UHGV virus genome: UHGV-0081265
Length of the DNA stretch: 13,782 nt
Origin: a virus
Direction: 5' to 3' (one strand)
The notes under the pieces are model-generated. The model searched no databases and had not been told where the DNA came from. It worked only from the letters and a program-made list of their open reading frames with translations. This document shows positions 731 through 13,782 of this stretch, in pieces; position 1 is the first letter of the stretch, and every line of letters starts with the position of its first letter. A program made the translations under genes and the position numbers.

Positions 731-1834
731 TTATTTCAACTTTAACGCCAAATCTTCAGCTTTTGGATGATAATACCGCATTAGCATTCTTGGATCTTTA
801 TGTCCTGTAATTTTGGTTAGTTCATGCATAGGGAAAATTTCAGCAAGTCGAGAAGTTGCTTCATGTCGAAGGTCATGAAATCTTAAATCTTTAAGGAAAG
901 ATTCATCACATAATGAGTTTGTTTTCTCGTATCGTTCTCTGGCTCGTTTTACAGCTCGGTCAAAAGCTCGGGTAATCGCGTCTGCACGCATATCAAAAAC
1001 CTTATCAGCAGCTGGCTTAGAATGTTCCTTGAGACTGGACAGTATCGTAATGGCTTTCGTTGATAAAGGGACATCGCGGGCATTACCATTCTTAGTATCC
1101 GGCAGATGTGCAACTCGCCGATCAAGATCGATAAAGCGCCATCGAAGCTCTGCGATTTCGCTACGGCGCATGGCTGTCTCTAACGCCAGAAGAATGATTG
1201 CTGGCAATACTAATGAATGTGTTGCGGCGATGATATGTTCGATCTCGTTGGCTATTTGCTTTCCTGACGTAACACCGGTTTTCTCAGAAACTACAGGCAG
1301 CGCTTCCAGGCGTCTGGTCCTGGAGTTCTTGGGTTGGGGTTTGCGAATGGCCTCTACGGGGTTCAGCAGGCTCTCCATGCCCCATTCTTTCCGCGAAACA
1401 TTGAATACATGAGAAAGTAAGGCCAAACGCCTTAAAACGGTTGCAGGAGCATAGATTTTCAACCATTCATCTCTCAGCTTGGCGACATCGGCACTCCTGA
1501 TGCTGGCCATATAGTTTTTCGCCAGCTGAGTGCCTTTTAGTATCCGCACCAATGATCGGTCTTGCACTGCCCCTTTTTTGTCGGGAACAATCTCTTTTTC
1601 ATATCGCGTTAGGGCTTCATACAATGTCGTAGATTCCGCTTCGCTGCGGCTAAGCCAAACTCCTCTCGCCATTTCTGACTCGATCATTTTGGCCCAAGCT
1701 TCTGCTTCTACTTTGGTGTTAAAGGTTTTGGTTTGAGAGGGAAAACCACGTTTACGGATTTGAGCTTCCCATTGGTAGTTACCACGTTTGCGTATAGTCG
1801 CCATTTCTGTCTGATTCCTAACGAACTGTGGCAA
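731..1834 (-). CDS. int: tyrosine-type site-specific recombinase / phage integrase
   Basis: 367-aa ORF with the catalytic signature of tyrosine recombinases: Arg in ETAMRRSEIAELRW, His-x-x-Arg in FHDLRHEATSRL, Tyr in MLMRYYHPK. Its start lies ~58 bp from the tRNA-Thr fragment. Confidence 0.85.
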   Translation of the reverse strand: MPQFVRNQTEMATIRKRGNYQWEAQIRKRGFPSQTKTFNTKVEAEAWAKMIESEMARGVWLSRSEAESTTLYEALTRYEKEIVPDKKGAVQDRSLVRILKGTQLAKNYMASIRSADVAKLRDEWLKIYAPATVLRRLALLSHVFNVSRKEWGMESLLNPVEAIRKPQPKNSRTRRLEALPVVSEKTGVTSGKQIANEIEHIIAATHSLVLPAIILLALETAMRRSEIAELRWRFIDLDRRVAHLPDTKNGNARDVPLSTKAITILSSLKEHSKPAADKVFDMRADAITRAFDRAVKRARERYEKTNSLCDESFLKDLRFHDLRHEATSRLAEIFPMHELTKITGHKDPRMLMRYYHPKAEDLALKLK

Positions 1835-1892: not shown

Positions 1893-1941
1893 CGCATTCG
1901 TAATGCGAAGGTCGTAGGTTCGACTCCTATTATCGGCACCA
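1893..1941 (+). other. partial tRNA-Thr (thrW-like) 3' segment, 49 nt, ending in CCA; attachment-site remnant, not a complete tRNA gene
   Basis: CGCATTCGTAATGCGAAGGTCGTAGGTTCGACTCCTATTATCGGCACCA matches the anticodon-loop-to-CCA portion of E. coli tRNA-Thr(CGU) as I recall it. The upstream sequence does not continue into the D-arm or acceptor stem. Confidence 0.7.
1925..1941 (+). repeat. 17-bp att core direct repeat, left copy (TCCTATTATCGGCACCA)
   Basis: Identical 17-mer occurs again at 13351-13367. Together they bracket an ~11.4 kb gene set that begins with an integrase. Confidence 0.75.
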
Positions 1942-2053
1942 TCTCTTAGTATTTCCAAGTCATCTCAAATCAACAAAACCCTTTAAAAACATAGATATTA
2001 CGCGATTTTTCGTCATTTGACGTCAACCCCTATCTCTTGAAATCAACATACAA

Positions 2054-2106
2054 TTGGGGGCACAATCGGGGGCATGTTCTGTTCGGTCTAGGAAATGTGC
2101 CCCCAA
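2054..2106. promoter_or_regulatory. GGGGGCA repeat cluster with an 11-bp inverted repeat (TTGGGGGCACA / TGTGCCCCCAA) ending at the integrase start codon; candidate Int arm-type sites and/or start-sequestering hairpin
   Basis: Direct GGGGGCA copies at 2056-2062 and 2068-2074, inverted copy at 2096-2106 abutting the ATG at 2106. Similar GGGGGCAT motifs sit on the other side of the att core at 13269-13292. Confidence 0.4.
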
Positions 2107-3287
2107 TGATGCTGAATGCCCGCAAGGTTGAAGCCGCTAAAGGAAAAGAGAAGAGCTATAAGCTATCTGATGGAGGTGGCCTGTACCTTCAGGTTGAACC
2201 TAATGGCTCGCGTTACTGGCGTATGAAGTATCGTTTTGCTGGTAAAGAGAAGCGCTTGTCCTTTGGTGTCTATCCAACAGTCACCCTCGCAGATGCCAGA
2301 CAAAAACGCGAAGACGCAAAGAAACTACTCGCAGCAGGTGAAGATCCTGGCGAAGTGAAAAAAGCAAAGAAGCATGCTTTAAACGCAGCGACCGAGACAC
2401 TTAACCCATTCAGAGAAGTGGCGTTAGAGTGGCACAAAATGAAATCTCCCAAATGGTCTGAGGGCTATGCTTCAGACATCATTGAGGCGTTTGAGAAAGA
2501 CATTTTCCCGCATATTGGACACAGACCTATAGCCGATATTCAGCCCCTAGAACTACTTGAAGTACTGAGGTTGATAGAAGCACGAGGCGCTATGGAGAAA
2601 GCGAAGAAAGTCCGTCAGCGATGCGGTGAAGTTTTCCGCTATGCCATCGTAACGGGTAGAGCAATCTACAATCCTGCACCGGATCTTGCCAGTGCGATGC
2701 AAGGACATGAAGCAGTCCACTATCCATTCCTCAAAGCCAACGAGCTGCCGGAGTTCTTTACTGCCCTTAACGCTTATTCAGGAAGCCCAATTGTATTGCT
2801 GGGGGCACATTTACTTATCCTGACGGGTCTAAGAACAGGAGAGCTAAGAGCAGGTGAGTGGCGTGAGGTGGATTTTGATAATGCGGTGTGGGAGATTCCC
2901 AAAGAACGTATGAAAATGCGACGTGCTCATATTGTGCCGCTTTCAAATCAAGCATTAGTCCATCTTGAAACCTTAAAAGAACTGACTGGAAACTATCCTT
3001 TGATGTTTCCTGGGCGTAACGATCCAAGTAAGTGCATGAGTGAGGCCAGTATTAATCAGGTCTTTAAGCGTATTGGATATGCTGGCCGTGTTACTGGCCA
3101 TGGCTTCAGACACACAATGAGCACTATTTTGCATGAAAAAGGCTTCAATAGTGCATGGATTGAAACCCAGCTTGCACATTTGGATAAAAATGCTATTCGG
3201 GGGATATACAATCATGCTCAGTATCTTGAGGGGCGTCGGGAAATGATGCAATGGTACAGTGATTTTATTGGTGGAACGGAGTCTTGA
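2106..3287 (+). CDS. int: P4-family tyrosine integrase (start moved to the internal ATG at 2106; the ORF-track start at 2037 is a TTG)
   Basis: N-terminal arm-binding-type region (KLSDGGGLYLQVEPNGSRYWRMKYRFAGKEKRLSFGVYPTVTLADARQKRED) typical of P4-like integrases. Catalytic Arg (LTGLRTGELR), His-x-x-Arg (GHGFRHT) and Tyr (IRGIYNHAQY). Lies directly downstream of the tRNA 3' fragment in the same orientation. Confidence 0.9.
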   Translation: MMLNARKVEAAKGKEKSYKLSDGGGLYLQVEPNGSRYWRMKYRFAGKEKRLSFGVYPTVTLADARQKREDAKKLLAAGEDPGEVKKAKKHALNAATETLNPFREVALEWHKMKSPKWSEGYASDIIEAFEKDIFPHIGHRPIADIQPLELLEVLRLIEARGAMEKAKKVRQRCGEVFRYAIVTGRAIYNPAPDLASAMQGHEAVHYPFLKANELPEFFTALNAYSGSPIVLLGAHLLILTGLRTGELRAGEWREVDFDNAVWEIPKERMKMRRAHIVPLSNQALVHLETLKELTGNYPLMFPGRNDPSKCMSEASINQVFKRIGYAGRVTGHGFRHTMSTILHEKGFNSAWIETQLAHLDKNAIRGIYNHAQYLEGRREMMQWYSDFIGGTES

Positions 3288-3290
3288 GTA

Positions 3291-4079
3291 ATGGCAAATA
3301 ATACTCTCAAGCTTCATCGAACTCATTATAGCATTAGTGAGACCGCTAAAATATTGGGCTGCGATGAGCAAGATGTTATTTATATTGCGGATGAAAAAGA
3401 CATTCCATTGTCGCTAAGAATGTGTGGGCGATGGTCTTTTTCAAAGCATAAAGTAAGAGATGTGGACTCCTTTATTCAGAATATAAACTCTTTGAAAAAA
3501 GACAAAGATGGTTTCAGTTATATATCTGAGTTTAGTTTGATTAAGATTAATGAAGTTAAAAAAGATAAAAAACTAGTGCTGGCGAGTACAAAAGGCTATT
3601 TCCAAATGCCACCAAAGGTTAAAAGTGATTTCGTTTTTTATGAAGGGCAGTTCCCGGAGTACCCATCATTGTTATCTCCTGCTGGTACCACCTATTCTGA
3701 AATGGTCAAATATATTCAAATTGACTGGAAAAATGATGATGGGTTTGGATATGAGGGAGATGCGTACCTGGAGCGGGAAGATGTAAAGAAATTGCATCTA
3801 ATATTAAATGATGATGTTTCTAATGATAAATATAAATCGTTATCAATTGCACAGCAAGAAAGACATGCTACCAAGAGAAATGAGATTCTAAGTGTAGCAT
3901 TATATCTTTATAAAGAGGATATGGCATACCGAAAGGAAAATGCAGCAGCCCTTGCTGACCTTATCTTTAGTCGGGCTGAGGAATTTTGGCCTGATAAAAA
4001 AGAGCCTCCGCTATCACACCCAATTATTAGCAAACTAATATCATCTATATTCAAGAAACCATCATTTACAAAAAATTAA
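3291..4079 (+). CDS. hypothetical protein: N-terminal excisionase/AlpA-type HTH plus ~190-aa domain of unknown function; AT-rich
   Basis: ATG 4 bp after the int stop with RBS GGAACGGAG. Residues ~14-60 (ISETAKILGCDEQDVIYIADEKDIPLSLRMCGRWSFSKHKVRD) resemble the Xis/AlpA helix-turn-helix. Markedly lower GC than the flanking int gene. Followed by a strong terminator. Confidence 0.7.
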   Translation: MANNTLKLHRTHYSISETAKILGCDEQDVIYIADEKDIPLSLRMCGRWSFSKHKVRDVDSFIQNINSLKKDKDGFSYISEFSLIKINEVKKDKKLVLASTKGYFQMPPKVKSDFVFYEGQFPEYPSLLSPAGTTYSEMVKYIQIDWKNDDGFGYEGDAYLEREDVKKLHLILNDDVSNDKYKSLSIAQQERHATKRNEILSVALYLYKEDMAYRKENAAALADLIFSRAEEFWPDKKEPPLSHPIISKLISSIFKKPSFTKN

Positions 4080-4086
4080 CAATTTT

Positions 4087-4121
4087 GGCGAGTAAGGAGA
4101 TTTTTCTTACTCGCCTTTTTT
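4087..4121 (+). terminator. rho-independent terminator ending the int-orf262 transcription unit
   Basis: 10-bp perfect stem GGCGAGTAAG / CTTACTCGCC, 9-nt loop, followed by TTTTTT. Confidence 0.8.
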
Positions 4122-4186
4122 ATATTTTTGAACGATGTTTTAATCCTCTTCGTTGATATAGATTGATACATAGAGAGGAACTCATT

Positions 4187-4387
4187 ATGGGGTTTACTGA
4201 TAATCGTCCTTCTGCTGACTCGCTCATTGATATGAAATTCATTACATCTGATTGTCTTTTTACTGATAAATGGATTTATAAACTGATTTCTCTGGGACGT
4301 TTTCCTAAACCAATCAAGTTAGGTCGTATGTCCCGATGGCGTGCTGGTGACTACTATGCTTGGCGTGATAGTCATTCTTCAGAGTAA
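4187..4387 (+). CDS. alpA: AlpA/Vis-family phage transcriptional regulator / excisionase-like DNA-binding protein
   Basis: Sequence FITSDCLFTDKWIYKLISLGRFPKPIKLGRMSRWRAGDYYAW is the classic AlpA-family HTH motif. Start placed at ATG 4187, 6 nt after RBS AGAGAGGA; the ORF-track start at 4163 is a TTG. Confidence 0.8.
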   Translation: MGFTDNRPSADSLIDMKFITSDCLFTDKWIYKLISLGRFPKPIKLGRMSRWRAGDYYAWRDSHSSE

Positions 4388-4423
4388 AAACATTAGTATT
4401 AGAAGCATTTATGAGGAGTTTAT

Positions 4424-5296
4424 ATGAATTACCGTCTACAACCAGCGGGGAGTCAATACATATCCCTTCCAATTAAGAATGAATATGTTTCCGTGTTAGG
4501 AAACTATAAAGTAAGTCCGTTTAAAGAAACTCATAGCGACACTGCATGTATTGTGCGAATTATTGAAATATTTTCATTGAATAAGCTGCGCGCTAAAGGT
4601 GAAAAGCTGTATTCACTTACGGGGTTAACAGTACCTGATACGGAAGCTGTGGCGAATGAGATCAACCTGCTCCTGAGCCGTTATGCCCAGTTGTGTCGTC
4701 AGGAAGAGGAAGAGTTATCTTTCCGGCAGCGTGAAGTGACAAATGCGGAAGTTGCATGGAAAAGCACATTCTCAAAAAACGGCGTCAGTAGCATTGCTGA
4801 AGCCAAAACGAATAAAACGGGGCATGCTGAACGAGCGGATGCTGAACGGTGTTACCATCTGGCTGTTTCTCGGCTGAATGAGCAACATAGCCGACTGAGC
4901 ACAATCAAGCTTTTACCGGGCGTACTGGTCGATGAAGTTAACTACATTGGTAAGGGAGTTGAGAAGCGTTTACTGAGCATATTTCCTCAATCCGGCCAGA
5001 TCCCTGCTGATTTTATTTCTGTGTTTAATGACAGTGACGTTGTTCGTGATATTAAATTTATTACAGATGCACTCAAATCTTTGTCTGATTCTGTGAATGA
5101 AATTATTAGCCGTTGTAGCGTTCCAACTGATCGTTATGTATTAAATAACGGTGGAATGGCAAGAGCTATGGCTTACAGGGAGTACTATCGAGCAGATAAT
5201 TATGTATTACGTTCAGTCGTTAGTGACCGGGATTATGTTGAGCATGTAATGAAATACAATCGGGTTACTGAGTACAAAAATAAAATCTTTTCTTAA
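4424..5296 (+). CDS. hypothetical protein, 290 aa; possible head-morphogenesis partner of the downstream capsid homolog
   Basis: Good RBS (GAGGAG) before ATG 4424. Sits immediately upstream of the GpN-like gene (23-bp gap). No family recognised by eye. The capsid-related role is inferred from position only. Confidence 0.6.
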   Translation: MNYRLQPAGSQYISLPIKNEYVSVLGNYKVSPFKETHSDTACIVRIIEIFSLNKLRAKGEKLYSLTGLTVPDTEAVANEINLLLSRYAQLCRQEEEELSFRQREVTNAEVAWKSTFSKNGVSSIAEAKTNKTGHAERADAERCYHLAVSRLNEQHSRLSTIKLLPGVLVDEVNYIGKGVEKRLLSIFPQSGQIPADFISVFNDSDVVRDIKFITDALKSLSDSVNEIISRCSVPTDRYVLNNGGMARAMAYREYYRADNYVLRSVVSDRDYVEHVMKYNRVTEYKNKIFS

Positions 5297-5318
5297 ATAC
5301 TAAAAAAGGTGAAAAACT

Positions 5319-6323
5319 ATGTATGCCTTCAAAACTGAAAGGCCGGACGCAGCACGTCGTTATCATAATAAATTCGTCACTGGTACTAACTATCAGGAGG
5401 AATCAAACAGACGCTTTGCATTAAGCGAACCCACTGAAAATATACTGCGTACCTCAATTCTGGAATCCGGGTGGCTTATTAAAAATATCACCCTACGTGA
5501 TGTTAACGCCGTGTCAGGTAATGCCGTCAATATTGGTGCCAGTGAACTGCATACCGGACGTGTGGATGGTGGCCGTTTCCACAAAAAAATGGCAATCAAT
5601 GGTACGGAGTTCTTTCTGACAGAGACGGATACCTGCGCCCGGATCAGCTATTCCGATATGTCTCATATTTACCATACCGGCGTGCCGGATGAGTTTGAGA
5701 AAACGGTTGAGAGCTTTTTTTCCCAGGCATATGCGCTGGACATGCTGCGGGTCGGTTTCAACGGTGTGTCGATTGCAAATACTACAAACCCGGAAATCAA
5801 TAAAAAAGGCGAGGATGTCAATATTGGCTGGCATGCACTGGCGAAAGCTTACGGGAACGGGAAGCAAATCATTTCTGAGCCTGTCACGCTGGGAGAGTCT
5901 GGCACCTGGAAAAACATTGATGCTCTGGCCAACCATCTGATTACTGAGCTTATTGCTGAGCAGTTTCGTGAAGATCCCCGTCTGGTTGTACTGGTTGGGG
6001 CAGAGCTGGCAGCACATCAACGCCTGAAGTTATTTAATGCCGCAGACCGCCCGGCTGATGTGAATGCGGCACAGATGGCGACAAGTTCTGTTGCTGGCCG
6101 CTTTGCGTTTATTCCCCCGTTTATGCCGGGTAAGCGTCTGGTAGTAACGACGCTGGATAATTTGCATATTTACACTCAGGCGATAACACGGTGGTTTCGT
6201 GCTGAGTTTGATGATGAAAACAGTGAATACGTACATTCCTACCTGCGTAATGAAGGCTATGCACTCGGTGAACCTGAACTGTACGCGGCTGTCGATGAGA
6301 GCGCCCTGACGTTTGCTGATTGA
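5319..6323 (+). CDS. P2 GpN-family major capsid protein homolog (HK97-fold capsid protein)
   Basis: 334 aa with RBS AAGGTGA. Several blocks align to P2 GpN as I recall it: ALDMLRVGFNGV vs SLDFIMAGFNGV; DALANHLITELIAEQFREDPRLVVLVGAELAA vs DALVMDATNNLIEPWYQEDPDLVVIVGRQLLA; TTLDNLHIYT vs TKLENLSIYY. Similar length to GpN (357 aa). Confidence 0.7.
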   Translation: MYAFKTERPDAARRYHNKFVTGTNYQEESNRRFALSEPTENILRTSILESGWLIKNITLRDVNAVSGNAVNIGASELHTGRVDGGRFHKKMAINGTEFFLTETDTCARISYSDMSHIYHTGVPDEFEKTVESFFSQAYALDMLRVGFNGVSIANTTNPEINKKGEDVNIGWHALAKAYGNGKQIISEPVTLGESGTWKNIDALANHLITELIAEQFREDPRLVVLVGAELAAHQRLKLFNAADRPADVNAAQMATSSVAGRFAFIPPFMPGKRLVVTTLDNLHIYTQAITRWFRAEFDDENSEYVHSYLRNEGYALGEPELYAAVDESALTFAD

Positions 6324-6336
6324 CTTAGCGACAGAA

Positions 6337-6363
6337 AGACCCGCTCAGAGGCGGGTCTCGTTT
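6337..6363 (+). terminator. putative rho-independent terminator after the capsid-homolog gene
   Basis: 8-bp stem AGACCCGC / GCGGGTCT with 6-nt loop, followed by a short T-tract (CGTTTA). Confidence 0.55.
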
Positions 6364-6520
6364 ACAGCATCAGGAAAAATGAAGAACTATTTTTAAGCAG
6401 AGGCTTAAGCATGCCAGCGTTAATTAATCCAGGCAATCATCAGTTTTCGGTTATAAATTTCTTGCCTCACAAGGAATACGCGGGATATAGTTCAAAGGTT
6501 GCCGCAAAATCGGCAGCCGG

Positions 6521-6786
6521 GCGTAGGAACCCGTGTAATCTAACGGCGACACAACACGCGCCAGGCGTGTTTTTTTGTGTCGTAGCTTTGACTCACCTTC
6601 GTTTTATGGTGTGGTGGCTGACTGCATGTTTTTATTTTTTACGCCACATCATCAGAATTATGGTAGTCCAGGCGGGGCAGCTTTCGGGCTGGCCGGTATC
6701 CGTTAGAGCCGGTATTCCTACCCCCGTCTGGGCTACCACCCATGAGCGTAGGAACTCCGGTGGTAGCGTTACCCGCTATCTAACGG
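6521..6786 (+). ncRNA. P4-type RNA immunity region: two direct repeats (seqA-like 6521-6546, seqC-like 6746-6786) flanking a complementary seqB-like element (6700-6721); candidate CI-RNA-like immunity RNA
   Basis: GCGTAGGAAC...ATCTAACGG occurs twice. Between them, CCGTTAGAGCCGGTATTCCTAC is the reverse complement of both sub-blocks (GTAGGAA and TCTAACGG). An internal terminator (6554-6576) and a 9-bp stem (GCTACCACC / GGTGGTAGC, 6731-6767) are present. Position upstream of the small-ORF/primase operon matches P4 organisation. Confidence 0.45.
6554..6576 (+). terminator. rho-independent terminator inside the immunity region
   Basis: Stem ACACGC / GCGTGT with 5-nt loop, followed by TTTTTT. Confidence 0.7.
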
Positions 6787-6797
6787 AGGTTGCCATT

Positions 6798-7001
6798 ATG
6801 GCTACAGTCCCTGCTTTATCTCACCCTGAATTTACCTTTGTTTTTCTGGCTGTCCGCCGTACAGACCGTGATGCCTGTCCACGTCCTGTGCGTGTAATCG
6901 CAGACTGCGAGCATGCTGCACGACTCAAACTTGCCACTGAATTTATCCTGAGCTTTGCTGCCCGTATCCCTGTGAAAAGCGCCGGGGAGGTGGTTGCATG
7001 A
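6798..7001 (+). CDS. small hypothetical protein (~67 aa), first gene of the replication operon
   Basis: ATG 6798 preceded by GGAGG. This is the C-terminal in-frame part of the 196-aa ORF-track entry, whose upstream part overlaps the terminator and repeats and is probably not translated. Stop overlaps the next start (ATGA). Confidence 0.5.
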   Translation: MATVPALSHPEFTFVFLAVRRTDRDACPRPVRVIADCEHAARLKLATEFILSFAARIPVKSAGEVVA

Positions 7002-7234
7002 AATCCATGAATTTTAAGCAAGGCTGCATATTGAGCGAACTAGGTGAGAGTCGTCTGTTACGGGCGGCACTGGCCAGTGAGTTTCTTGCAGAGGTCCTGT
7101 CCGTTCCCACAGTGAATGGAGCGAGAACTGTTTCAGCGGAAGGCGCTGCGGCTTTAGTGGCCTGTATTGCCGAACAACTGGATGGCGTTGTTAAGGAAAC
7201 CAGCACAATTAAGGGAGTGATGCGCGATGAATAA
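6998..7234 (+). CDS. small hypothetical protein (78 aa), translationally coupled
   Basis: ATG overlaps the upstream stop (ATGA), RBS GGGGAGG. Position is analogous to the epsilon/derepression genes of P4-like elements; no motif recognised. Confidence 0.55.
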   Translation: MKSMNFKQGCILSELGESRLLRAALASEFLAEVLSVPTVNGARTVSAEGAAALVACIAEQLDGVVKETSTIKGVMRDE

Positions 7235-7637
7235 TAATCAAAATTTAAAGGCGCATGCTTTACGAACAGCAGTCTTACGGTACTACATTGCTGATTCATT
7301 CATTTCCTTAATGGAGCGTGTTCATAATGAACCTGTTTATATTGAAGATGGCGAACGAATAGAACTCACCCACGAAAAAGTGGTGAGTAATATTATTTAC
7401 CATATTGAAATGCCGTGGGTGAATGAGTTTGGGGCTGATGCAGGTTGCATACTGGCCGCAGAAAAACTGGAAAAAATGCTTAAACCGGGCTTTATGTCAG
7501 AAAATATTCGCCTGTCAGTTTTTGGTGTCACAGAGATGCGTGAGGTTTACCGGGATATTATTTTCGGTGCACCTGATGGCGAACTACCCGAAGGTTTTGA
7601 GTTTGTGAAGCCGGAAGGTCAGGAGGTGCTGCTGTGA
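7227..7637 (+). CDS. hypothetical protein (136 aa), translationally coupled to the primase
   Basis: Start overlaps the upstream stop. Its own stop TGA overlaps the GTG start of the primase gene. Confidence 0.6.
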   Translation: MNNNQNLKAHALRTAVLRYYIADSFISLMERVHNEPVYIEDGERIELTHEKVVSNIIYHIEMPWVNEFGADAGCILAAEKLEKMLKPGFMSENIRLSVFGVTEMREVYRDIIFGAPDGELPEGFEFVKPEGQEVLL

Positions 7638-10321
7638 AAACACCGTCTGTATCCACGATTTCCGGGGCTGCAATTGGGCGCTGGCCTTATATCCTGTCAG
7701 CATTAGGTATCAAAGTACCGTCCGCAGGACATCATGGGGCTTGCCCTGCCTGTGGTGGCAAAGATCGCTTTCGGCTGGACGATAAAGCGGGGCGTGGGAC
7801 GTGGTTTTGTAATCAGTGCGGTCATGGCGATGGTCTTGATCTGGTTCGTCTGGTGACAGGAAGAAAGATAAAAGAAGTCGCCGGGATGGTATCTGAGGCG
7901 CTTGCATTACCAGAAATACAGGAGAAGCCCGCTTTGCCTGCCAGGAAAAAGGCCGCAGGAAAAGAAGCGGGCGCGGAGCGATATACCAGACTCAGACAGC
8001 AGTCCTGCAATGGTGAACCGGTCTATCTGACAAACAAGGGCTTACATGGGTATTCACTTCCCTTGCTGTCACAGCCTTTGAATCTGGCCGGAATAACATT
8101 TTCCTCCGGTTCATTACTGCTGCCGTTGACGGATATTTCCGGGAATATTACTGGTGGCCAGCTTATCAATCCTGACGGGGATAAAAGTCTGCTGCCCGGT
8201 AGCCAGCTGTCTGGCGCATTCATTGCCCTGACCGATATACCCGCTGAAACACCTGAACAGGTGATTATAACAGAGGGTTTTGCCACGGCGCTTACCGTCA
8301 GTCTGCTGACTGAAGGATGGATCGTGGCGGCTGTTGCTGCCACCAATTTACTGAAGGTGACGGAGCAGATCCGGAAACGCTGGCCGGAAACCCGGATCAT
8401 TCTGGCTGGCGATAATGATCTGGCTGACGGGAAAGAAAACACCGGGCGTATTCAGGCAGAGAAAGCTGCCAAAGCAGTGGATGGCTGGGTAACGCTCCCT
8501 CCGGTACGCCATAAGGCTGACTGGGATGATTATCGGCAGGAAGTGGGGAAAGAACGGGCGAGAGATGCCTTTCGTGAAGAAATGACGCTGCATGGCAAAG
8601 GGCAGACCCGTTTACCAGAAGGGTTCCGGCTGACAAAAGAATATTTGTGGTACGACAAGCTGGTTAATAAGTCTGATGGTGATACGGAGATACGAAATAT
8701 CAAAATTTGCAGTCCGTTACGGGTGACGGCAATCACCAGTGATGCTGATGGAAGTAATTACGGGCGTTTGCTGGAATGGGAAGATACCAACGGAAACAGC
8801 CGTAAATGGGCAATGCCAATGGAGATGCTGGGTGGCAGCGGGGAAGAGCTGCGCCGCGTTCTGCTGGTTAACGGGCTTTCTTACATCAACATTAACGGTA
8901 TGGCCAGAGCATTCCTTATGGAATATATCTCGCTGTGTAAACCGGACAGAAAAGTAACCTGTGTAAATAAAACGGGCTGGCACGGCGGGGTTTACGTTCT
9001 CCAGGATGAAGTGATAGGACGTGAAGCCCAGTCAGTCATCTTACAAACGTCGAGTGTGCAGGGGCGTGATTTTCGTGTCAGCGGTACATCAGAGGACTGG
9101 CGTGAAAATATAAGCCGTTACTGCATAAATAATGCCCGTCTTGCCTTTGCGGTGAGTCTGGCATTTGCTGCCCCCCTTCTGAAACTGGTTGGTATCGGCG
9201 GTGGAGGTTATCACCTCAAAGGGGAATCAACGGATGGTAAAACCACGACGATGAAAGTGGCTGCTTCAGTATGTGGTGGAACAGATTTCTGGCATACGTG
9301 GCGGGCGACGGGGAATGCCTTAGAAGGAACGGCGAGCCGCCGTAATGATGCCACGCTGATGCTGGATGAAATCCGGGAGGTTGACGGCAGGGAGGCGGGG
9401 AATATCGCTTATATGCTGGCTAACGGGCAGGGCAAAGCCAGAGCCAGAACAGATGGTTCGGTAAGGGAAACCAACCGCTGGAATCTGTTGTTTCTGTCCA
9501 CCGGGGAACTGTCACTGGTAGAACATGCGGCAAGCGCCGGGGAACGTACGTATGCCGGGGTTGAGGTCAGAATGATCCAGATCCCAAGCGATTCGGGCAA
9601 ATATGGCGTGTTTGAAGAACTTCATGGCTTCAGTAGCGGGAAAACCCTGGCAGAGCATCTTGAGCAGCATGTAGCGCATTATCATGGCGCACCATTCCGC
9701 GACTGGCTGCATTGCCTGACCGCTGATCTGCCGGAACTGACCAGCCAGGCCAAAGCCTTATTGAAAGAGTACACCCGAAGGCTGACGCCGGAAAATGCCG
9801 GGAATCAGGTTGGCCGGGCTGTTACCCGTTTTGCTCTGGTTGCAATGGCCGGGGAACTGGCCACAAAAGCGGGCATCACAGGATGGCCGGAGGGAGAGGC
9901 CTTTCGTGCCGCCCAAAGTTGTCTGGCTGCATGGATGGCTGACCGGGGCCATACAGCTAATCAGGAAGATAAAGCGGCACTTGAACAGGTACGGGACTTC
10001 ATGACGCGTAATCAGTTCAGTCGGTTTGCTGACTGGAATGACGACAGGAACCGGCCTGTTTCAATGATGGGATTCAGAAAAGTCGATAAAGGAGACAACG
10101 TGACAGAGCCGGTTGTGACGTTCTACGTTCTCCCATCAGGCTGGAAGGAGATCTGTAAGGGATTTGATTCGCGTAAGGTGGCTAGGTTGTGTGTGGACGC
10201 GGGCTGGCTGAAACCCGGTGAAGATGGCCGGACGCAAAACAGCATTCGCCTGCCAGAAATAGGGCTTAAACGTGTGTACCAGTTCAATACGCAGGTACTG
10301 GGAAGCGCCGAACCGGAGTAA
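7634..10321 (+). CDS. P4 alpha-like bifunctional DNA primase-helicase
   Basis: 895 aa. N-terminal zinc ribbon (CPACGG...CNQCGH), TOPRIM motifs (IITEGFATALTVS; ILAGDND), P-loop helicase Walker A (GESTDGKTT) and Walker B (LMLDEIRE). GTG start 8 nt after AGGAGG. Confidence 0.9.
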   Translation: MKTPSVSTISGAAIGRWPYILSALGIKVPSAGHHGACPACGGKDRFRLDDKAGRGTWFCNQCGHGDGLDLVRLVTGRKIKEVAGMVSEALALPEIQEKPALPARKKAAGKEAGAERYTRLRQQSCNGEPVYLTNKGLHGYSLPLLSQPLNLAGITFSSGSLLLPLTDISGNITGGQLINPDGDKSLLPGSQLSGAFIALTDIPAETPEQVIITEGFATALTVSLLTEGWIVAAVAATNLLKVTEQIRKRWPETRIILAGDNDLADGKENTGRIQAEKAAKAVDGWVTLPPVRHKADWDDYRQEVGKERARDAFREEMTLHGKGQTRLPEGFRLTKEYLWYDKLVNKSDGDTEIRNIKICSPLRVTAITSDADGSNYGRLLEWEDTNGNSRKWAMPMEMLGGSGEELRRVLLVNGLSYININGMARAFLMEYISLCKPDRKVTCVNKTGWHGGVYVLQDEVIGREAQSVILQTSSVQGRDFRVSGTSEDWRENISRYCINNARLAFAVSLAFAAPLLKLVGIGGGGYHLKGESTDGKTTTMKVAASVCGGTDFWHTWRATGNALEGTASRRNDATLMLDEIREVDGREAGNIAYMLANGQGKARARTDGSVRETNRWNLLFLSTGELSLVEHAASAGERTYAGVEVRMIQIPSDSGKYGVFEELHGFSSGKTLAEHLEQHVAHYHGAPFRDWLHCLTADLPELTSQAKALLKEYTRRLTPENAGNQVGRAVTRFALVAMAGELATKAGITGWPEGEAFRAAQSCLAAWMADRGHTANQEDKAALEQVRDFMTRNQFSRFADWNDDRNRPVSMMGFRKVDKGDNVTEPVVTFYVLPSGWKEICKGFDSRKVARLCVDAGWLKPGEDGRTQNSIRLPEIGLKRVYQFNTQVLGSAEPE

Positions 10322-10347
10322 TTATCGCGTGAGTCTTATTTTTATGA

Positions 10348-10540
10348 GGTAACACTGGTAACAGAGGTAACGCCCGCTACTGATGCGGTTCTTCAGTGTT
10401 ACCAGTCAAAAATACTGACTGGTAACAGAGGTAACAAAAAATGGTGCGTTACCACGCGTTACCTCTTGATTATGTTAACTGGTAACAGATTAAATCCTTT
10501 TAAATCAATAGCGTTACACGTGTTACCAGTGTTACACGTT
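10348..10540. repeat. iteron array (GGTAACA / TGTTACC heptamers, at least 10 copies, direct and inverted); candidate crr/ori-type binding sites for the primase-helicase
   Basis: Copies at 10348, 10357, 10366, 10397 (inv), 10421, 10430, 10448 (inv), 10457 (inv), 10481, 10522 (inv). 17-bp direct repeat CTGGTAACAGAGGTAAC at 10355-10371 and 10419-10435. 12-bp perfect inverted repeat TGTTACCAGTCA / TGACTGGTAACA at 10397-10408 and 10416-10427. Lies immediately 3' of the primase gene, as P4 crr does; P4 iterons (TGTTCACC) are similar. Confidence 0.6.
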
Positions 10541-10603
10541 CAGAACAAGAGGTAGGGACCCAAATCCCTTCTTCTGGCGGGCAACAGTAAAGGGCACAGA
10601 ACG

Positions 10604-10876
10604 ATGAAGATGATGAGAATGTACTGCCCCACATGTCAGGCAGTAGCGCGGATAGGTAAAACAAACAGGAAACACCCACAACTGTACGATGTGTACTGCT
10701 ATTGCTCTAATGTGGAGTGCGGTCACTCGTTTGTGATGAATGTTGCTTTCTCCCATTCCGTTAGTCCAAGCGCGCTGAACGGGCAGGGGAGGGTTAAAGA
10801 GCTAATTGATGCCATTCCACCCGAGGAGCGGGAAAAGGCTTTAAAGTTGCTGCTGGCTGCGCAAAAGAATGGGTAA
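10604..10876 (+). CDS. Ogr/Delta-family zinc-finger late-gene transcriptional activator
   Basis: Cys spacing C-x2-C-x22-C-x4-C (YCPTCQ...CYCSNVEC) is the Ogr/Delta signature. Size (85-90 aa) is Ogr-like. The true start may be the internal ATG at 10619. Confidence 0.8.
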   Translation: MKMMRMYCPTCQAVARIGKTNRKHPQLYDVYCYCSNVECGHSFVMNVAFSHSVSPSALNGQGRVKELIDAIPPEEREKALKLLLAAQKNG

Positions 10877-11482
10877 AGTATGCGTCGGGAATGGCCGATC
10901 CGTTCCCGGAACCTGACCACAGGATTTCAGTTTATACGAACATAAAATTATTATTTTTCAATTTGTTATGTTTTTCGTATTTCACGAACCTTCATAAAAT
11001 CACACACCTAAAATAAATTATCCATTTAATATCATAGTGTTGCGTATTCAGGCCACAAATGCGACGGACAGTAAAACTGAAAAAAGCTGAATTTCTTTTC
11101 ATTCTTTTCAGTTCCTGCCTCGCAGTGCATCCCCAGCACGGACGCGGGCTGGCGGTATCGTTTGTAAAAAATCACAACTGAAAAATTTTAGTGATATGAA
11201 AACCGCAGGCGGGTGCGGTGTAGTGCGATTTTGGTCTTATAAAGATTTGTGTCTTAAAATTAATTAATGGTTTTAACTATTTGTTTGGAATTAATTTCAC
11301 AATGTACATGTTTGATATGAATGATAAATTAGTATATGCTTGAGTAAAGAAATGATGTATATTTTTATGGTCGAGGTGTAAGCGCTTTTTTGATGTATTT
11401 AATAGGTGTATGTTTTTATTAATCGGAGAATTGTTAATATTTATAATTGTTATAAAATAGAAATCGCTATGAAGGTGTGTAT

Positions 11483-12085
11483 ATGAGAGATAATTCAAAT
11501 AAAGTAAAGGGGTATGTAAGACGTAAAGTTGATTTGTATATTTTGTCATTAGCTATTTTATTTTGTTTTTTTATTTTTATTACAATAAAATTTCCTGTGT
11601 GTTTTGGGGCTAAATGTGAGTTCATTGGCTGGTCTTTGCTGTTGAAAAATAATATTGTTCCCTTGATTTGCGTAGGGTTGCTTTTATATTGTGGGGTGGC
11701 CTACAAAAGGTTTCAATATGACACAAATAAAAGTGTCGAACTTCCAATGAAAATAACAAAAATTGAAAAAATAAATTATGAGCACCTTACCTTTTTAGCC
11801 ACATATATTATCCCATTGATTACATTTGATTTTGAAAAAGAAAGGTATGTGATCGTTCTAGCAGTTCTCTTGATAATTATGGGTATTATTTATATTAAAA
11901 CGGATTTGTTTTACGCTAATCCATCCTTGGCTTTATTAGGGTTTAATATTTATAAGTTGGATGTGAGTATAACAGGAGGTATTAATAAAACAGGGCTAAT
12001 ATTAATTACTAGGCGACAGTTAAAAGAAAATGACATGATAAGTTATATTGTGCTTGATGAAAGAGTTTACTATTCTGGAGATTAA
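11483..12085 (+). CDS. small 4-TM membrane protein (200 aa); first gene of an AT-rich two-gene cargo; KwaA-like architecture, unverified
   Basis: ATG 11483 after RBS GAAGG. Four hydrophobic helices (LYILSLAILFCFFIFITI, IVPLICVGLLLYCGVAY, LTFLATYIIPLITF, YVIVLAVLLIIMGIIYI) then a ~60-aa soluble tail. Very AT-rich. A 10-bp gap separates it from the next gene. Confidence 0.65.
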   Translation: MRDNSNKVKGYVRRKVDLYILSLAILFCFFIFITIKFPVCFGAKCEFIGWSLLLKNNIVPLICVGLLLYCGVAYKRFQYDTNKSVELPMKITKIEKINYEHLTFLATYIIPLITFDFEKERYVIVLAVLLIIMGIIYIKTDLFYANPSLALLGFNIYKLDVSITGGINKTGLILITRRQLKENDMISYIVLDERVYYSGD

Positions 12086-12094
12086 GGATTAAAT

Positions 12095-13078
12095 ATGTCA
12101 CCGCAGCAATTGGATAAAAAAGGCTTGGATGATAATCTAAGTTATTATATTAATAATAAAGATGATATTTCTGTTATTGTTTATGCCATTCTAAAAAATA
12201 GCCCTGTTGCATATCGAATGGATATAGAGGGAAGCGCTCAAGATGGCCTCAAAGAATTATTTTTAGAAAGTATAAAAAATAATATCATTGATAATGATGA
12301 TATCAGTATTTTACCTCTTTCGTCAGCAGATGAAAGAAATAATGTTATTTATCATTACGATATTGAATGGCCTGATGAGTTAACCTCCATGCAAAGTATG
12401 CTTGGGCAGCAAGGGGAGAGTGTTTTTGATTTTAATGTACAAAATATTGAAGATATTAGAGTGTTGCTAATTTGTATTGGTAATGTACAACAACAAATTA
12501 TACTCTACAAAACAATGGCTCCAGTCAATATTTTCTCTCGCTCAGGTTTTTTTCTAAAAAAATCAGCAACAAGACTTGAGGAAATTGAAGATGATTTTTT
12601 TCGAGTTAGTGATAATTTTCAAATTATCAAAGTTGAAAATGATTTATATGTGGTAGATCTTAAGTTAATCGAGAAAATGTTTGGTTTTCACGAGGTTATC
12701 AAAAAAGAGGCTACACTTGGCATGAATGCCATTGAGAGTATGAATATTATCACTGATATAAATGTGATAAAAGAACTAATAGATGATGTAAAATATGCTA
12801 GAAAACTAACAAGGATAGCAAAATCTTCTCCAGTAATATTAGCTAATATTGAAAATGAAAAAATTATAGAGTTTTGTAAAACCTACCCAGTGTTGGTCAA
12901 TAGAATCAGATTTAATGAAGATGGAACAAAGATCGCACTTGACACGAAGGTTTCAAAAGATCTATTTATTAAAATTCTGATGGATGATTTTTTAACCTCA
13001 CAGTTGACTCAATTTTATTATGAGAGTCTAGCAAAAGATGCAGTAAAAATAGCCGCTGATAATACTAAAGAAAACTAA
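12095..13078 (+). CDS. 327-aa soluble protein, second gene of the two-gene cargo; size and context fit KwaB (DUF4868) of Kiwa, but domain not confirmed
   Basis: RBS AAGGA before ATG 12095. Acidic, AT-rich, no TM segment, no obvious nuclease or NTPase motif by eye. Followed by a terminator hairpin. Lies in the variable position next to attR. Confidence 0.65.
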   Translation: MSPQQLDKKGLDDNLSYYINNKDDISVIVYAILKNSPVAYRMDIEGSAQDGLKELFLESIKNNIIDNDDISILPLSSADERNNVIYHYDIEWPDELTSMQSMLGQQGESVFDFNVQNIEDIRVLLICIGNVQQQIILYKTMAPVNIFSRSGFFLKKSATRLEEIEDDFFRVSDNFQIIKVENDLYVVDLKLIEKMFGFHEVIKKEATLGMNAIESMNIITDINVIKELIDDVKYARKLTRIAKSSPVILANIENEKIIEFCKTYPVLVNRIRFNEDGTKIALDTKVSKDLFIKILMDDFLTSQLTQFYYESLAKDAVKIAADNTKEN

Positions 13079-13083
13079 TTAAT

Positions 13084-13109
13084 ATTGTGGTGAGATTATT
13101 CACCACAAT
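13084..13109. terminator. terminator-like hairpin after the cargo operon
   Basis: 10-bp perfect stem ATTGTGGTGA / TCACCACAAT with 6-nt loop in AT-rich context, 6 bp after the stop of the 327-aa gene. Confidence 0.5.
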
Positions 13110-13268
13110 AATATTATCTAATATATTGATTGTGTTTTAAGTGTTTTAATTCTATTGTGAAAAAATTGACTTTGTTTTGATTTGGCAAAATTATAGCTTT
13201 TCTATTACTCACCCTGATGAAATGATCGATTAATCTATCTAGCATGCTGAAGTTACAGCTAAGGTGTA

Positions 13269-13292
13269 GGGGGGGGGCATTTTAGGGGGCAT
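13269..13292 (+). promoter_or_regulatory. G-run / GGGGGCAT repeats adjacent to the right att core; candidate integrase arm-type sites
   Basis: GGGGGGGGGCAT (13269-13280) and GGGGGCAT (13285-13292), same motif as the copies next to the left att core at 2056-2075. Confidence 0.35.
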
Positions 13293-13350: not shown

Positions 13351-13367
13351 TCCTATTATCGGCACCA
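13351..13367 (+). repeat. 17-bp att core direct repeat, right copy (TCCTATTATCGGCACCA)
   Basis: Exact copy of 1925-1941 (the tRNA-Thr 3' end). Upstream sequence no longer matches the tRNA, so this is the element-distal junction. Confidence 0.75.
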
Positions 13368-13644
13368 TTAAAATCAAATTGTTACGTAAGATCTTATCAT
13401 TCTCCCACCAAAAAATTATCTTAATGTAACAGCTGGTGTAAGTAAATTCTATCAACGAAGATCAATCTTATCTACTGACCAAAAAGGCCTGATAGGGCTT
13501 CGCTCACTATACATCCTTGGCTGCAGGTTTAGTTGTACACCACTCCTAAATTTAATGTGTTGGCAATGTGTTCAATAAAGCTCGAACAAATTAGCTCATT
13601 ATGATCGGTTAATACTTCAACTTCTGGTTGCATGATTGTTTGTC

Positions 13645-13683
13645 CGTAAAAAGATAACGCGCCTGCCGGGTAGTAGCAGGCGC
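13645..13683 (-). terminator. rho-independent terminator on the minus strand
   Basis: 8-bp stem GCGCCTGC / GCAGGCGC (13659-13666 and 13676-13683) with 9-nt loop. On the minus strand it is followed by GTTATCTTTTTACGG. Confidence 0.5.
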
Positions 13684-13729
13684 ATTACGCAATAGGTAAA
13701 CAAGGGAGGAAGTTCAGAAATGTAAATCG

Positions 13730-13782
13730 GGTAATGACTCCAACTTATTGATAGTGTTTTATGTTCAGATAATGCCCGATGA
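13730..13782 (+). mobile_element. IS1 terminal fragment (left-end inverted repeat); element continues beyond the right edge of the window
   Basis: GGTAATGACTCCAACTTATTGATAGTGTTTTATGTTCAGATAATGCCCGATGA, perfect inverted copy of bases 1-53. Confidence 0.85.

Follow-up and report, generated by a model that had tools for sequence, protein, structure and literature searches.

The AT-rich gene pair near the right end of the window, by which we mean the whole 13,782-nucleotide stretch of UHGV virus genome UHGV-0081265 analyzed here, is in our judgment a complete two-gene Kiwa system that is carried as exchangeable cargo in a cos-adjacent slot of an integrated P4-type satellite. We give this reading a probability of about 93%. 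The assignment to Kiwa can be considered settled, because curated HMMs and sequence matches to solved structures agree. A first-pass annotation of this DNA had reasoned from the letters alone that an AT-rich, self-contained pair at the variable end of a satellite, with the architecture of Kiwa, should be an anti-phage system, and this reasoning proved right. The fallback that it had named, an uncharacterised pair, is ruled out by the Kiwa assignment of both proteins. Kiwa, its structures, its mechanism and its presence in P4 hotspots (Rousset et al. 2022, PMC9122126) are all already known, and the locus described here is one more documented case of Kiwa as satellite cargo, an ordinary one that matters little beyond annotation.

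The kwaA-kwaB pair and its family assignment

The upstream gene, kwaA (11483-12085, plus strand), encodes a protein of 200 aa from an ATG at position 11483, which is preceded by AAGG 7 nt upstream and is also the start chosen by RefSeq; an alternative GTG start at 11477 would yield 202 aa. The downstream gene, kwaB (12095-13078, plus strand), encodes a protein of 327 aa and carries the sequence TAAGGA ahead of its ATG. Both ORFs are intact, without internal stops. The operon runs from kwaA to kwaB on one strand, with an intergenic gap of only 9 nt (12086-12094) and a single hairpin downstream, in agreement with the closely spaced, co-directional pair described in the first-pass annotation.

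A hydropathy profile with a 15-residue window revealed four peaks for KwaA, located at residues ~16-36, 50-72, 100-117 (the weakest one, with a value of 1.5) and 119-140, as anticipated for the four-TM protein proposed earlier, and zero peaks for KwaB. KwaA is accordingly predicted to be a four-TM membrane protein with a cytoplasmic C-terminal region, the membrane protein of Kiwa. For KwaB, the soluble effector of the system, a Rossmann-like N-terminal domain ahead of a C-terminal DUF4868 domain is predicted.

The two genes are far poorer in GC than their surroundings: kwaA has a GC content of 0.294, kwaB of 0.301 and the cargo slot as a whole (11249-13272) of 0.291, compared to 0.466 for the satellite core (1925-11236), just as the first-pass annotation had stated. 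The AT-rich region upstream of the cassette (11249-11482, plus strand) contains candidate σ70 promoters according to a consensus scan, which found 25 promoter-like matches versus 16 expected, such matches being common in AT-rich DNA. The best-placed candidate, TTGTTA-16-TAAAAT, is located at 11431-11458. A terminator-like hairpin (13083-13110, plus strand) begins 5 nt past the kwaB stop codon and corresponds to the terminator that had been attributed to the pair. Scanning gave it a stem of 12 bp and a loop of 4 nt, RNA folding 11 bp and 6 nt; it has a free energy of –15.1 kcal/mol (z = –4.0 versus shuffled sequences) and is followed by a tail that is T-rich only to a moderate degree.

KwaB matches the Pfam family PF16162 (KwaB-like, formerly DUF4868) with an E value of 3.6e-41 and 141.7 bits, compared to a gathering cut-off of 26.3 bits, and residues 119-305 align to positions 2-186 of the 186-position model. 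This profile search had been suggested in the first-pass annotation, as had a comparison with the PADLOC models, where KwaA matches PDLC00219 (4.4e-83) and KwaB matches PDLC00233 (2.6e-131), both models being covered over practically their full length. Systems other than Kiwa are absent from the PADLOC match lists of both proteins. The NCBIfam equivalogs, which are used by PGAP for naming, score 226.6 bits for KwaA (NF041622, cut-off 100) and 354.7 bits for KwaB (NF041623, cut-off 200), and RefSeq lists the proteins as “anti-phage protein KwaA” (WP_023565260.1) and “anti-phage protein KwaB” (WP_223571321.1). Three complete E. coli genomes in RefSeq (AH04, AH02 and CT01) share a 2.1-kb segment with the window at 100% identity and have the genes annotated as kwaA and kwaB.

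Both proteins also give near full-length sequence alignments with the solved Kiwa structures 9mrg, 9mrx and 9o0i. KwaA aligns to 9mrg_A without gaps over 184 residues (43% identity, chain positions 7-190 of 195, E = 8.4e-41). The alignment of KwaB to 9o0i_H comprises 303 aligned residues (31% identity, chain positions 6-313, E = 2.7e-38) and, judged from sequence alone, spans the Rossmann-like N-terminal domain (residues 1-185). Pfam, PADLOC, NCBIfam and PDB thus all agree with the architecture that had initially been a guess. A match to a non-defence function, such as transport or metabolism, had been named as the outcome that would speak against it, and no such family was matched in Pfam at E values up to 1.

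The satellite, its putative cos site and the cargo slot

The limits of the element are given by an 18-bp direct repeat, TCCTATTATCGGCACCAT. One copy forms the attL core at 1925-1942, at the 3′ end of a tRNA-Thr remnant, and an exact second copy forms the attR core at 13351-13368. In relatives, the attL sequence is the 3′ end of the tRNA-Thr gene beside proA. E. coli FAM21845 represents the empty site, in which positions 1-1942 of the window are joined to 13351-13731 via a single copy of the repeat. Because the empty site and the att repeats fix its ends, the element has a size of 11,426 bp, close to that of P4 (11,624 bp). The end of kwaB is 272 bp away from attR, and the repeats and the empty site confirm the earlier placement of the cargo beside this attachment site.

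Between the repeats, we identified a P4-type integrase with integrase domains (2037-3287), a HTH/AlpA-like ORF (4163-4387; PF05930 with 20.0 bits, just below the cut-off of 21, and a helix-turn-helix regulator according to RefSeq), a homolog of the P2-family major capsid protein (5319-6323), an Ash/Icd-like protein (Phage_ASH, 6411-7001) with Rfam matches to C4 antisense RNA and isrK inside the gene, including a C4/CI-type RNA at 6656-6743, an α-type primase with Zn-ribbon, Toprim and DUF927 (7634-10321) and an Ogr/Delta protein (Ogr_Delta, 10604-10876). The DNA identity to P4 is 69% for int and 71% for the immunity region. Psu and Sid were not matched by any satellite ORF in Pfam, PHROG or NCBIfam. 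A 290-aa ORF shows no similarity to P4 Sid (E = 0.41) or to the ESSI-2 scaffold protein, and the 262-aa gene following int shows none to P4 cII.

P4-like satellites are defined by seven components (PMC10085698). In this scheme, integrase, Delta, Ash/ε and the α primase are clearly represented, AlpA is borderline, and Psu and Sid were not detected. Because only four clear components and one borderline component of the seven are found, we use the label “P4-type”: the element is a variant that would count as “Type C” at best, and we do not regard it as a canonical P4-like satellite.

The cargo slot is preceded, at a distance of about 25 bp, by a 15-mer, GCGGGTGCGGTGTAG (11209-11223, plus strand), which is probably the cohesive end of a cos site. 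A search of a phage database led to Cronobacter phage ESSI-2 (Peduoviridae), whose linear record begins and ends with exactly this 15-mer. The flanking DNA at 11072-11226, comprising ~150 bp before the 15-mer, shares ~76% identity with the end of the ESSI-2 record. In eight of eight related satellite loci, the 15-mer occurs a single time, right before the cargo. Neither a P2/P4 cos sequence nor similarity to the P4 cos region was found in 10877-11482.

The slot itself (11249-13272), which here is occupied by Kiwa, was delimited by the break points of similarity to near-identical satellites. In LI60C3 and TK3887, the core is 97.5-98% identical to the window; this similarity stops at 11236/11248 and resumes at 13273 with 74-78% identity. 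We inspected eight sister satellite loci and found eight different cargos at this position. AH04 carries the Kiwa allele of the window, BCE049 a divergent Kiwa (65% identical), LI60C3 the Shosta system (ShosA/ShosT), TK3887 the PADLOC candidate defence gene PDC-M36A, SC477 a type IV retron together with its 2TM effector, FDAARGOS_1261 an AriA/AriB-like (PARIS-type) pair, BR1220 Shedu, and MLI104K2 two unknown genes. Hence, seven of the eight cargos are known or candidate defence systems, two of them being Kiwa alleles, which corroborates the variable hotspot proposed in the first-pass annotation.

The gene order of the tRNA-Thr lineage, to which the satellite of the window belongs, is delta, cos, cargo and attR, with int at the opposite end. 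The sister tRNA-Arg lineage has delta, cos, cargo and int in succession, which agrees with the published layout of canonical P4 except that delta takes the place of psu. The cargo of the tRNA-Thr lineage is located beside attR because attP falls between cargo and int. Since the putative cos lies just upstream, the slot is the cos-adjacent hotspot of Rousset et al. (2022; PMC9122126), but not literally a position “between psu and int”. The first-pass annotation, which had placed the pair in the reported defence hotspot of P4-like satellites, was therefore correct with respect to the variable hotspot; in this satellite, psu is absent and attP separates the cargo from int. The satellite of the window, which is cleanly delimited by its att repeats and the empty site, belongs to a psu/sid-less sub-family that puts defence genes in the same cos-adjacent slot. 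Psu-less satellites should escape surveys that are keyed to psu, among them the published one of the hotspot (PMC9122126).

Alleles, proposed mechanism and alternative readings

Among 5426 complete E. coli genomes, just 3 possess the exact allele of the window, and these appear to be clonal. A cassette with 88% identity occurs in 18 complete E. coli genomes, and one with 65% identity in BCE049 and NCTC9100. In all, 23 complete E. coli genomes reach a DNA identity of 65% or more, and none of them bears the name of a strain with an experimentally tested Kiwa operon (ECOR8, ECOR12, ECOR49 or D9). A search of the cargo against plasmids gave zero matches. In the two genomes inspected, the 88% allele is located in an IS-rich, non-satellite island adjoining a type I restriction-modification system. 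The homology with this allele spans 11425-13109, beginning just before the promoter candidate and reaching the end of the hairpin. The promoter-like site at 11431-11458 is inside the common span and travels with the genes, and we therefore propose that the moving unit consists of the promoter, the two genes and the terminator.

The rarity of the exact allele and its clonal appearance could indicate a decaying or inactive Kiwa remnant that is passively carried and no longer protective. Loss does happen, as illustrated by SMS-3-5 and KD0845, in which kwaB of the 88% allele is interrupted by an IS4-like element. In the window, by comparison, neither ORF is truncated, the HMM matches extend from end to end, and the ribosome-binding sites, the promoter candidate and the terminator are kept. 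Relative to the 88% allele, the dN/dS ratio is about 0.09-0.10 (kwaA, 0.085; kwaB, 0.103) at a dS of 0.5-0.6, and these ratios of ~0.1 show that both genes are under purifying selection.

The residues described for other homologs are a further point in favor of a remnant, as published interface residues and some of the DNA-contact residues are replaced in this allele. Compared to O55:H7, the basic DNA-contact residues R167, K187 and R233 of KwaB are kept as R170, K190 and R236, N134 is changed to T and D169 to S, and R142 falls into an unaligned insertion; this set of residues (N134, R142, R167, D169, K187 and R233) comes from an AlphaFold3 model (bioRxiv 10.1101/2023.02.26.530102) and from one homolog, O55:H7, and is not family-defining. 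We mapped nine positions of KwaA and seven of KwaB at the KwaA-KwaB interface. The sole residue retained is Y181 of KwaA, as Y188, and the replaced ones include R21, R35, Y157, P100, N101 and Q103 of KwaB as well as K75, N77 and H156 of KwaA; the interface set derives from two homologs (O55:H7 and ECOR49) and is likewise not family-defining. Divergence on both sides of the interface is, however, what would be expected of co-evolving partners, and the interface residues of ECOR49 Kiwa also differ (bioRxiv 10.1101/2023.02.26.530102). The changes on both partners probably reflect clade-level co-variation, and complex formation by this allele is predicted at most. In the light of the intact genes and the selection acting on them, we regard a remnant as very improbable and favor a complete Kiwa system. 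In the literature, we came across no experiment with this allele.

The mechanism of Kiwa has been described in a preprint from 2023, with a version from 2025 (bioRxiv 10.1101/2023.02.26.530102). According to this work, KwaA comprises four TM helices and a cytoplasmic β-barrel and forms tetramers in the membrane, which are linked by KwaB dimers into a fence-like supercomplex. The complex goes to phage attachment sites and reacts to membrane perturbation. KwaB binds DNA via DUF4868 without cutting it; replication is stalled, late transcription is prevented, and the cells survive. Gam-type DNA mimics inhibit the system.

By analogy, KwaA tetramers in the inner membrane would bind KwaB dimers via their cytoplasmic β-barrel, giving rise to an extended supercomplex at the membrane. 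Perturbation of the membrane by phage attachment, DNA ejection or conjugation would then activate the complex at the site of entry. Here, KwaB would grip the incoming DNA via DUF4868, so that replication stalls and late transcription is blocked, and the cell would not be killed. Phage-encoded Gam-type DNA mimics might inhibit this step. In a lysogen of the satellite, the cassette probably relies on its own promoter for expression and would shield the host from unrelated phages, and in this way the satellite as well.

The same published action of KwaB, the stalling of replication and the loss of late transcription, could be exploited by the satellite. The cassette might be Kiwa in structure but serve the satellite life cycle, for example by curbing replication or late transcription of a helper in favor of packaging. 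Its location ~25 bp from a putative cos that matches ESSI-2-type helpers would fit such a role, and a possible action of P4 cargo against P2 has been raised in a 2026 preprint. The satellite, however, needs the late genes of its helper, and blocking them would be self-defeating. Moreover, unrelated defence systems fill the same slot in the sister satellites, which argues that no single cargo is required, and the 88% allele resides in a defence island outside any satellite. We consider a life-cycle role to be exceedingly improbable, and an exchangeable defence cassette remains our preferred reading.

A related idea concerns the specificity of this cassette. Because the interface residues are nearly all replaced and the cassette is carried by a psu/sid-less, capsid-encoding satellite with an ESSI-2-like cos, the trigger or target range of the diverged allele may spare an ESSI-2-type helper and exclude competitors. 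We hold this to be unlikely. If true, a helper-sparing Kiwa would provide a natural test case for satellite cargo that tells helper from non-helper phages.

Comparison with known Kiwa loci

The Kiwa system of E. coli O55:H7 RM12579 (Doron et al. 2018) shows the same kwaA-kwaB order, with a four-TM KwaA of ~200 aa and a DUF4868-containing KwaB of ~320 aa, and its structures are available as 9mrg, 9mrr, 9mrx, 9mtn, 9nyu and 9o0i (Zhang, Todeschini et al., bioRxiv 10.1101/2023.02.26.530102). The proteins of the window are 43% (KwaA) and 31% (KwaB) identical to those of O55:H7 and differ in context, being encoded in a satellite slot.

Close relatives of the pair are WP_001204062.1 and WP_000074845.1 (E. 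coli strains 205, MSB1_6C and others), with 89% amino acid identity for each protein, which are encoded in the IS-rich island and not in a satellite. The proteins of BCE049, WP_023568590.1 and WP_023568589.1, are 62% and 53% identical and are encoded in this very slot, in a satellite that belongs to the family of the one described here. For both pairs of relatives, the best PADLOC models are PDLC00219 and PDLC00233, as in the case of the window. The accessions of all three alleles, namely those of the window, the 88% allele and BCE049, do not occur in the supplementary material of Rousset et al. (PMC9122126).

Kiwa is listed among the contents of P4 hotspots by Rousset et al. (2022; PMC9122126), and hotspots of P4 and P2, including minor ones near the att sites, have been catalogued in a 2026 preprint. 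The supplement of the former study contains a three-gene WYL-Kiwa cassette from the psu-int hotspot of E. coli TA280 (plasmid pFR79). Like the pair described here, this cassette is cargo of the cos-adjacent hotspot of a P4-type satellite. It consists of three genes, with a WYL-domain protein encoded upstream, whereas the window contains two genes without WYL, and the accessions differ. The satellites are also distinct: the one carrying WYL-Kiwa has psu-delta-sid, whereas in that of the window psu and sid were not detected and a homolog of the P2-family capsid protein is encoded instead.

The variable slot and other genes

The variable cargo site of the satellite (11249-13272) holds a Kiwa cassette in the window, and a second Kiwa cassette fills that slot in a satellite of the same family from E. 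coli BCE049 (L005, 14504-16153). Compared with 11483-13078 of the window, the BCE049 Kiwa DNA is only 65% identical, and the two encoded proteins share 62% and 53% identity. Because one slot holds cassettes this divergent in DNA, Kiwa was either gained there at least twice or exchanged through recombination.

A second accessory slot could be represented by the AT-rich gene directly downstream of int (3291-4079, GC 0.35), which encodes a 262-aa protein without a match in Pfam, PHROG or NCBIfam and without a significant one in PADLOC. A comparison of this gene with P4 cII showed no similarity. Near the left border, a 229-aa protein encoded on the minus strand (32-721, GC 0.32) likewise had no match in NCBIfam or PADLOC; its gene adjoins that of a second, unrelated tyrosine integrase (731-1834, minus strand).

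Integration site and borders of the window

In the sister strains, the satellite resides at an intact tRNA-Thr gene beside proA, whereas in the window it is not at that gene. Here, within 731-1942, the insertion site is a 3′ tRNA remnant, which the second integrase gene adjoins; ARAGORN found no tRNA over the window, and in FAM21845, an E. coli strain with an empty att site, this remnant bears the odd annotation of a 112-nt "tRNA-Ser". Positions 1-53 and 13730-13782 are one IS1 terminus, inverted relative to each other, and the window therefore looks like a complete assembly contig bordered by IS1 copies at both ends. AH04, a sister strain with identical Kiwa DNA, has an IS1 copy 170 bp nearer to the satellite, and positions 13562-13570 (9 bp) are duplicated there.

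Immunity region and repeats

Positions 6498-6743 are a P4-type RNA immunity region: an annotated Ash/Icd-like ORF contains Rfam matches to both isrK (6498-6575, 71.8 bits) and the C4 antisense RNA (6656-6743, 81 bits). Directly downstream of the primase gene lie three copies of ACTGGTAACAGAGGTAAC (10354-10495), spaced 60-64 bp apart and accompanied by inverted partners, which look like replication-origin iterons or a crr-like region.

Putative cos site, capsid homolog and candidate helper

Within 11072-11248, we identified a putative cos 15-mer, GCGGGTGCGGTGTAG (11209-11223), identical to both termini of the record of Cronobacter phage ESSI-2 (Peduoviridae, Seongnamvirus). The 150 bp flanking it match the end of that record at ∼76% identity, and the 15-mer occurs once in each sister satellite (8/8). 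Taken together, these sequence matches suggest an ESSI-2-type phage rather than P2 as the helper; the putative cos is unlike the P2/P4 type.

A major capsid homolog of the P2 family is encoded by the satellite itself (5319-6323, in region 4424-6323); it shares 49% identity with the ESSI-2 capsid protein, and its gene is preceded by one for a 290-aa protein without a family match. Psu and Sid are absent from the satellite, and capsid redirection may follow a route other than that of P4.
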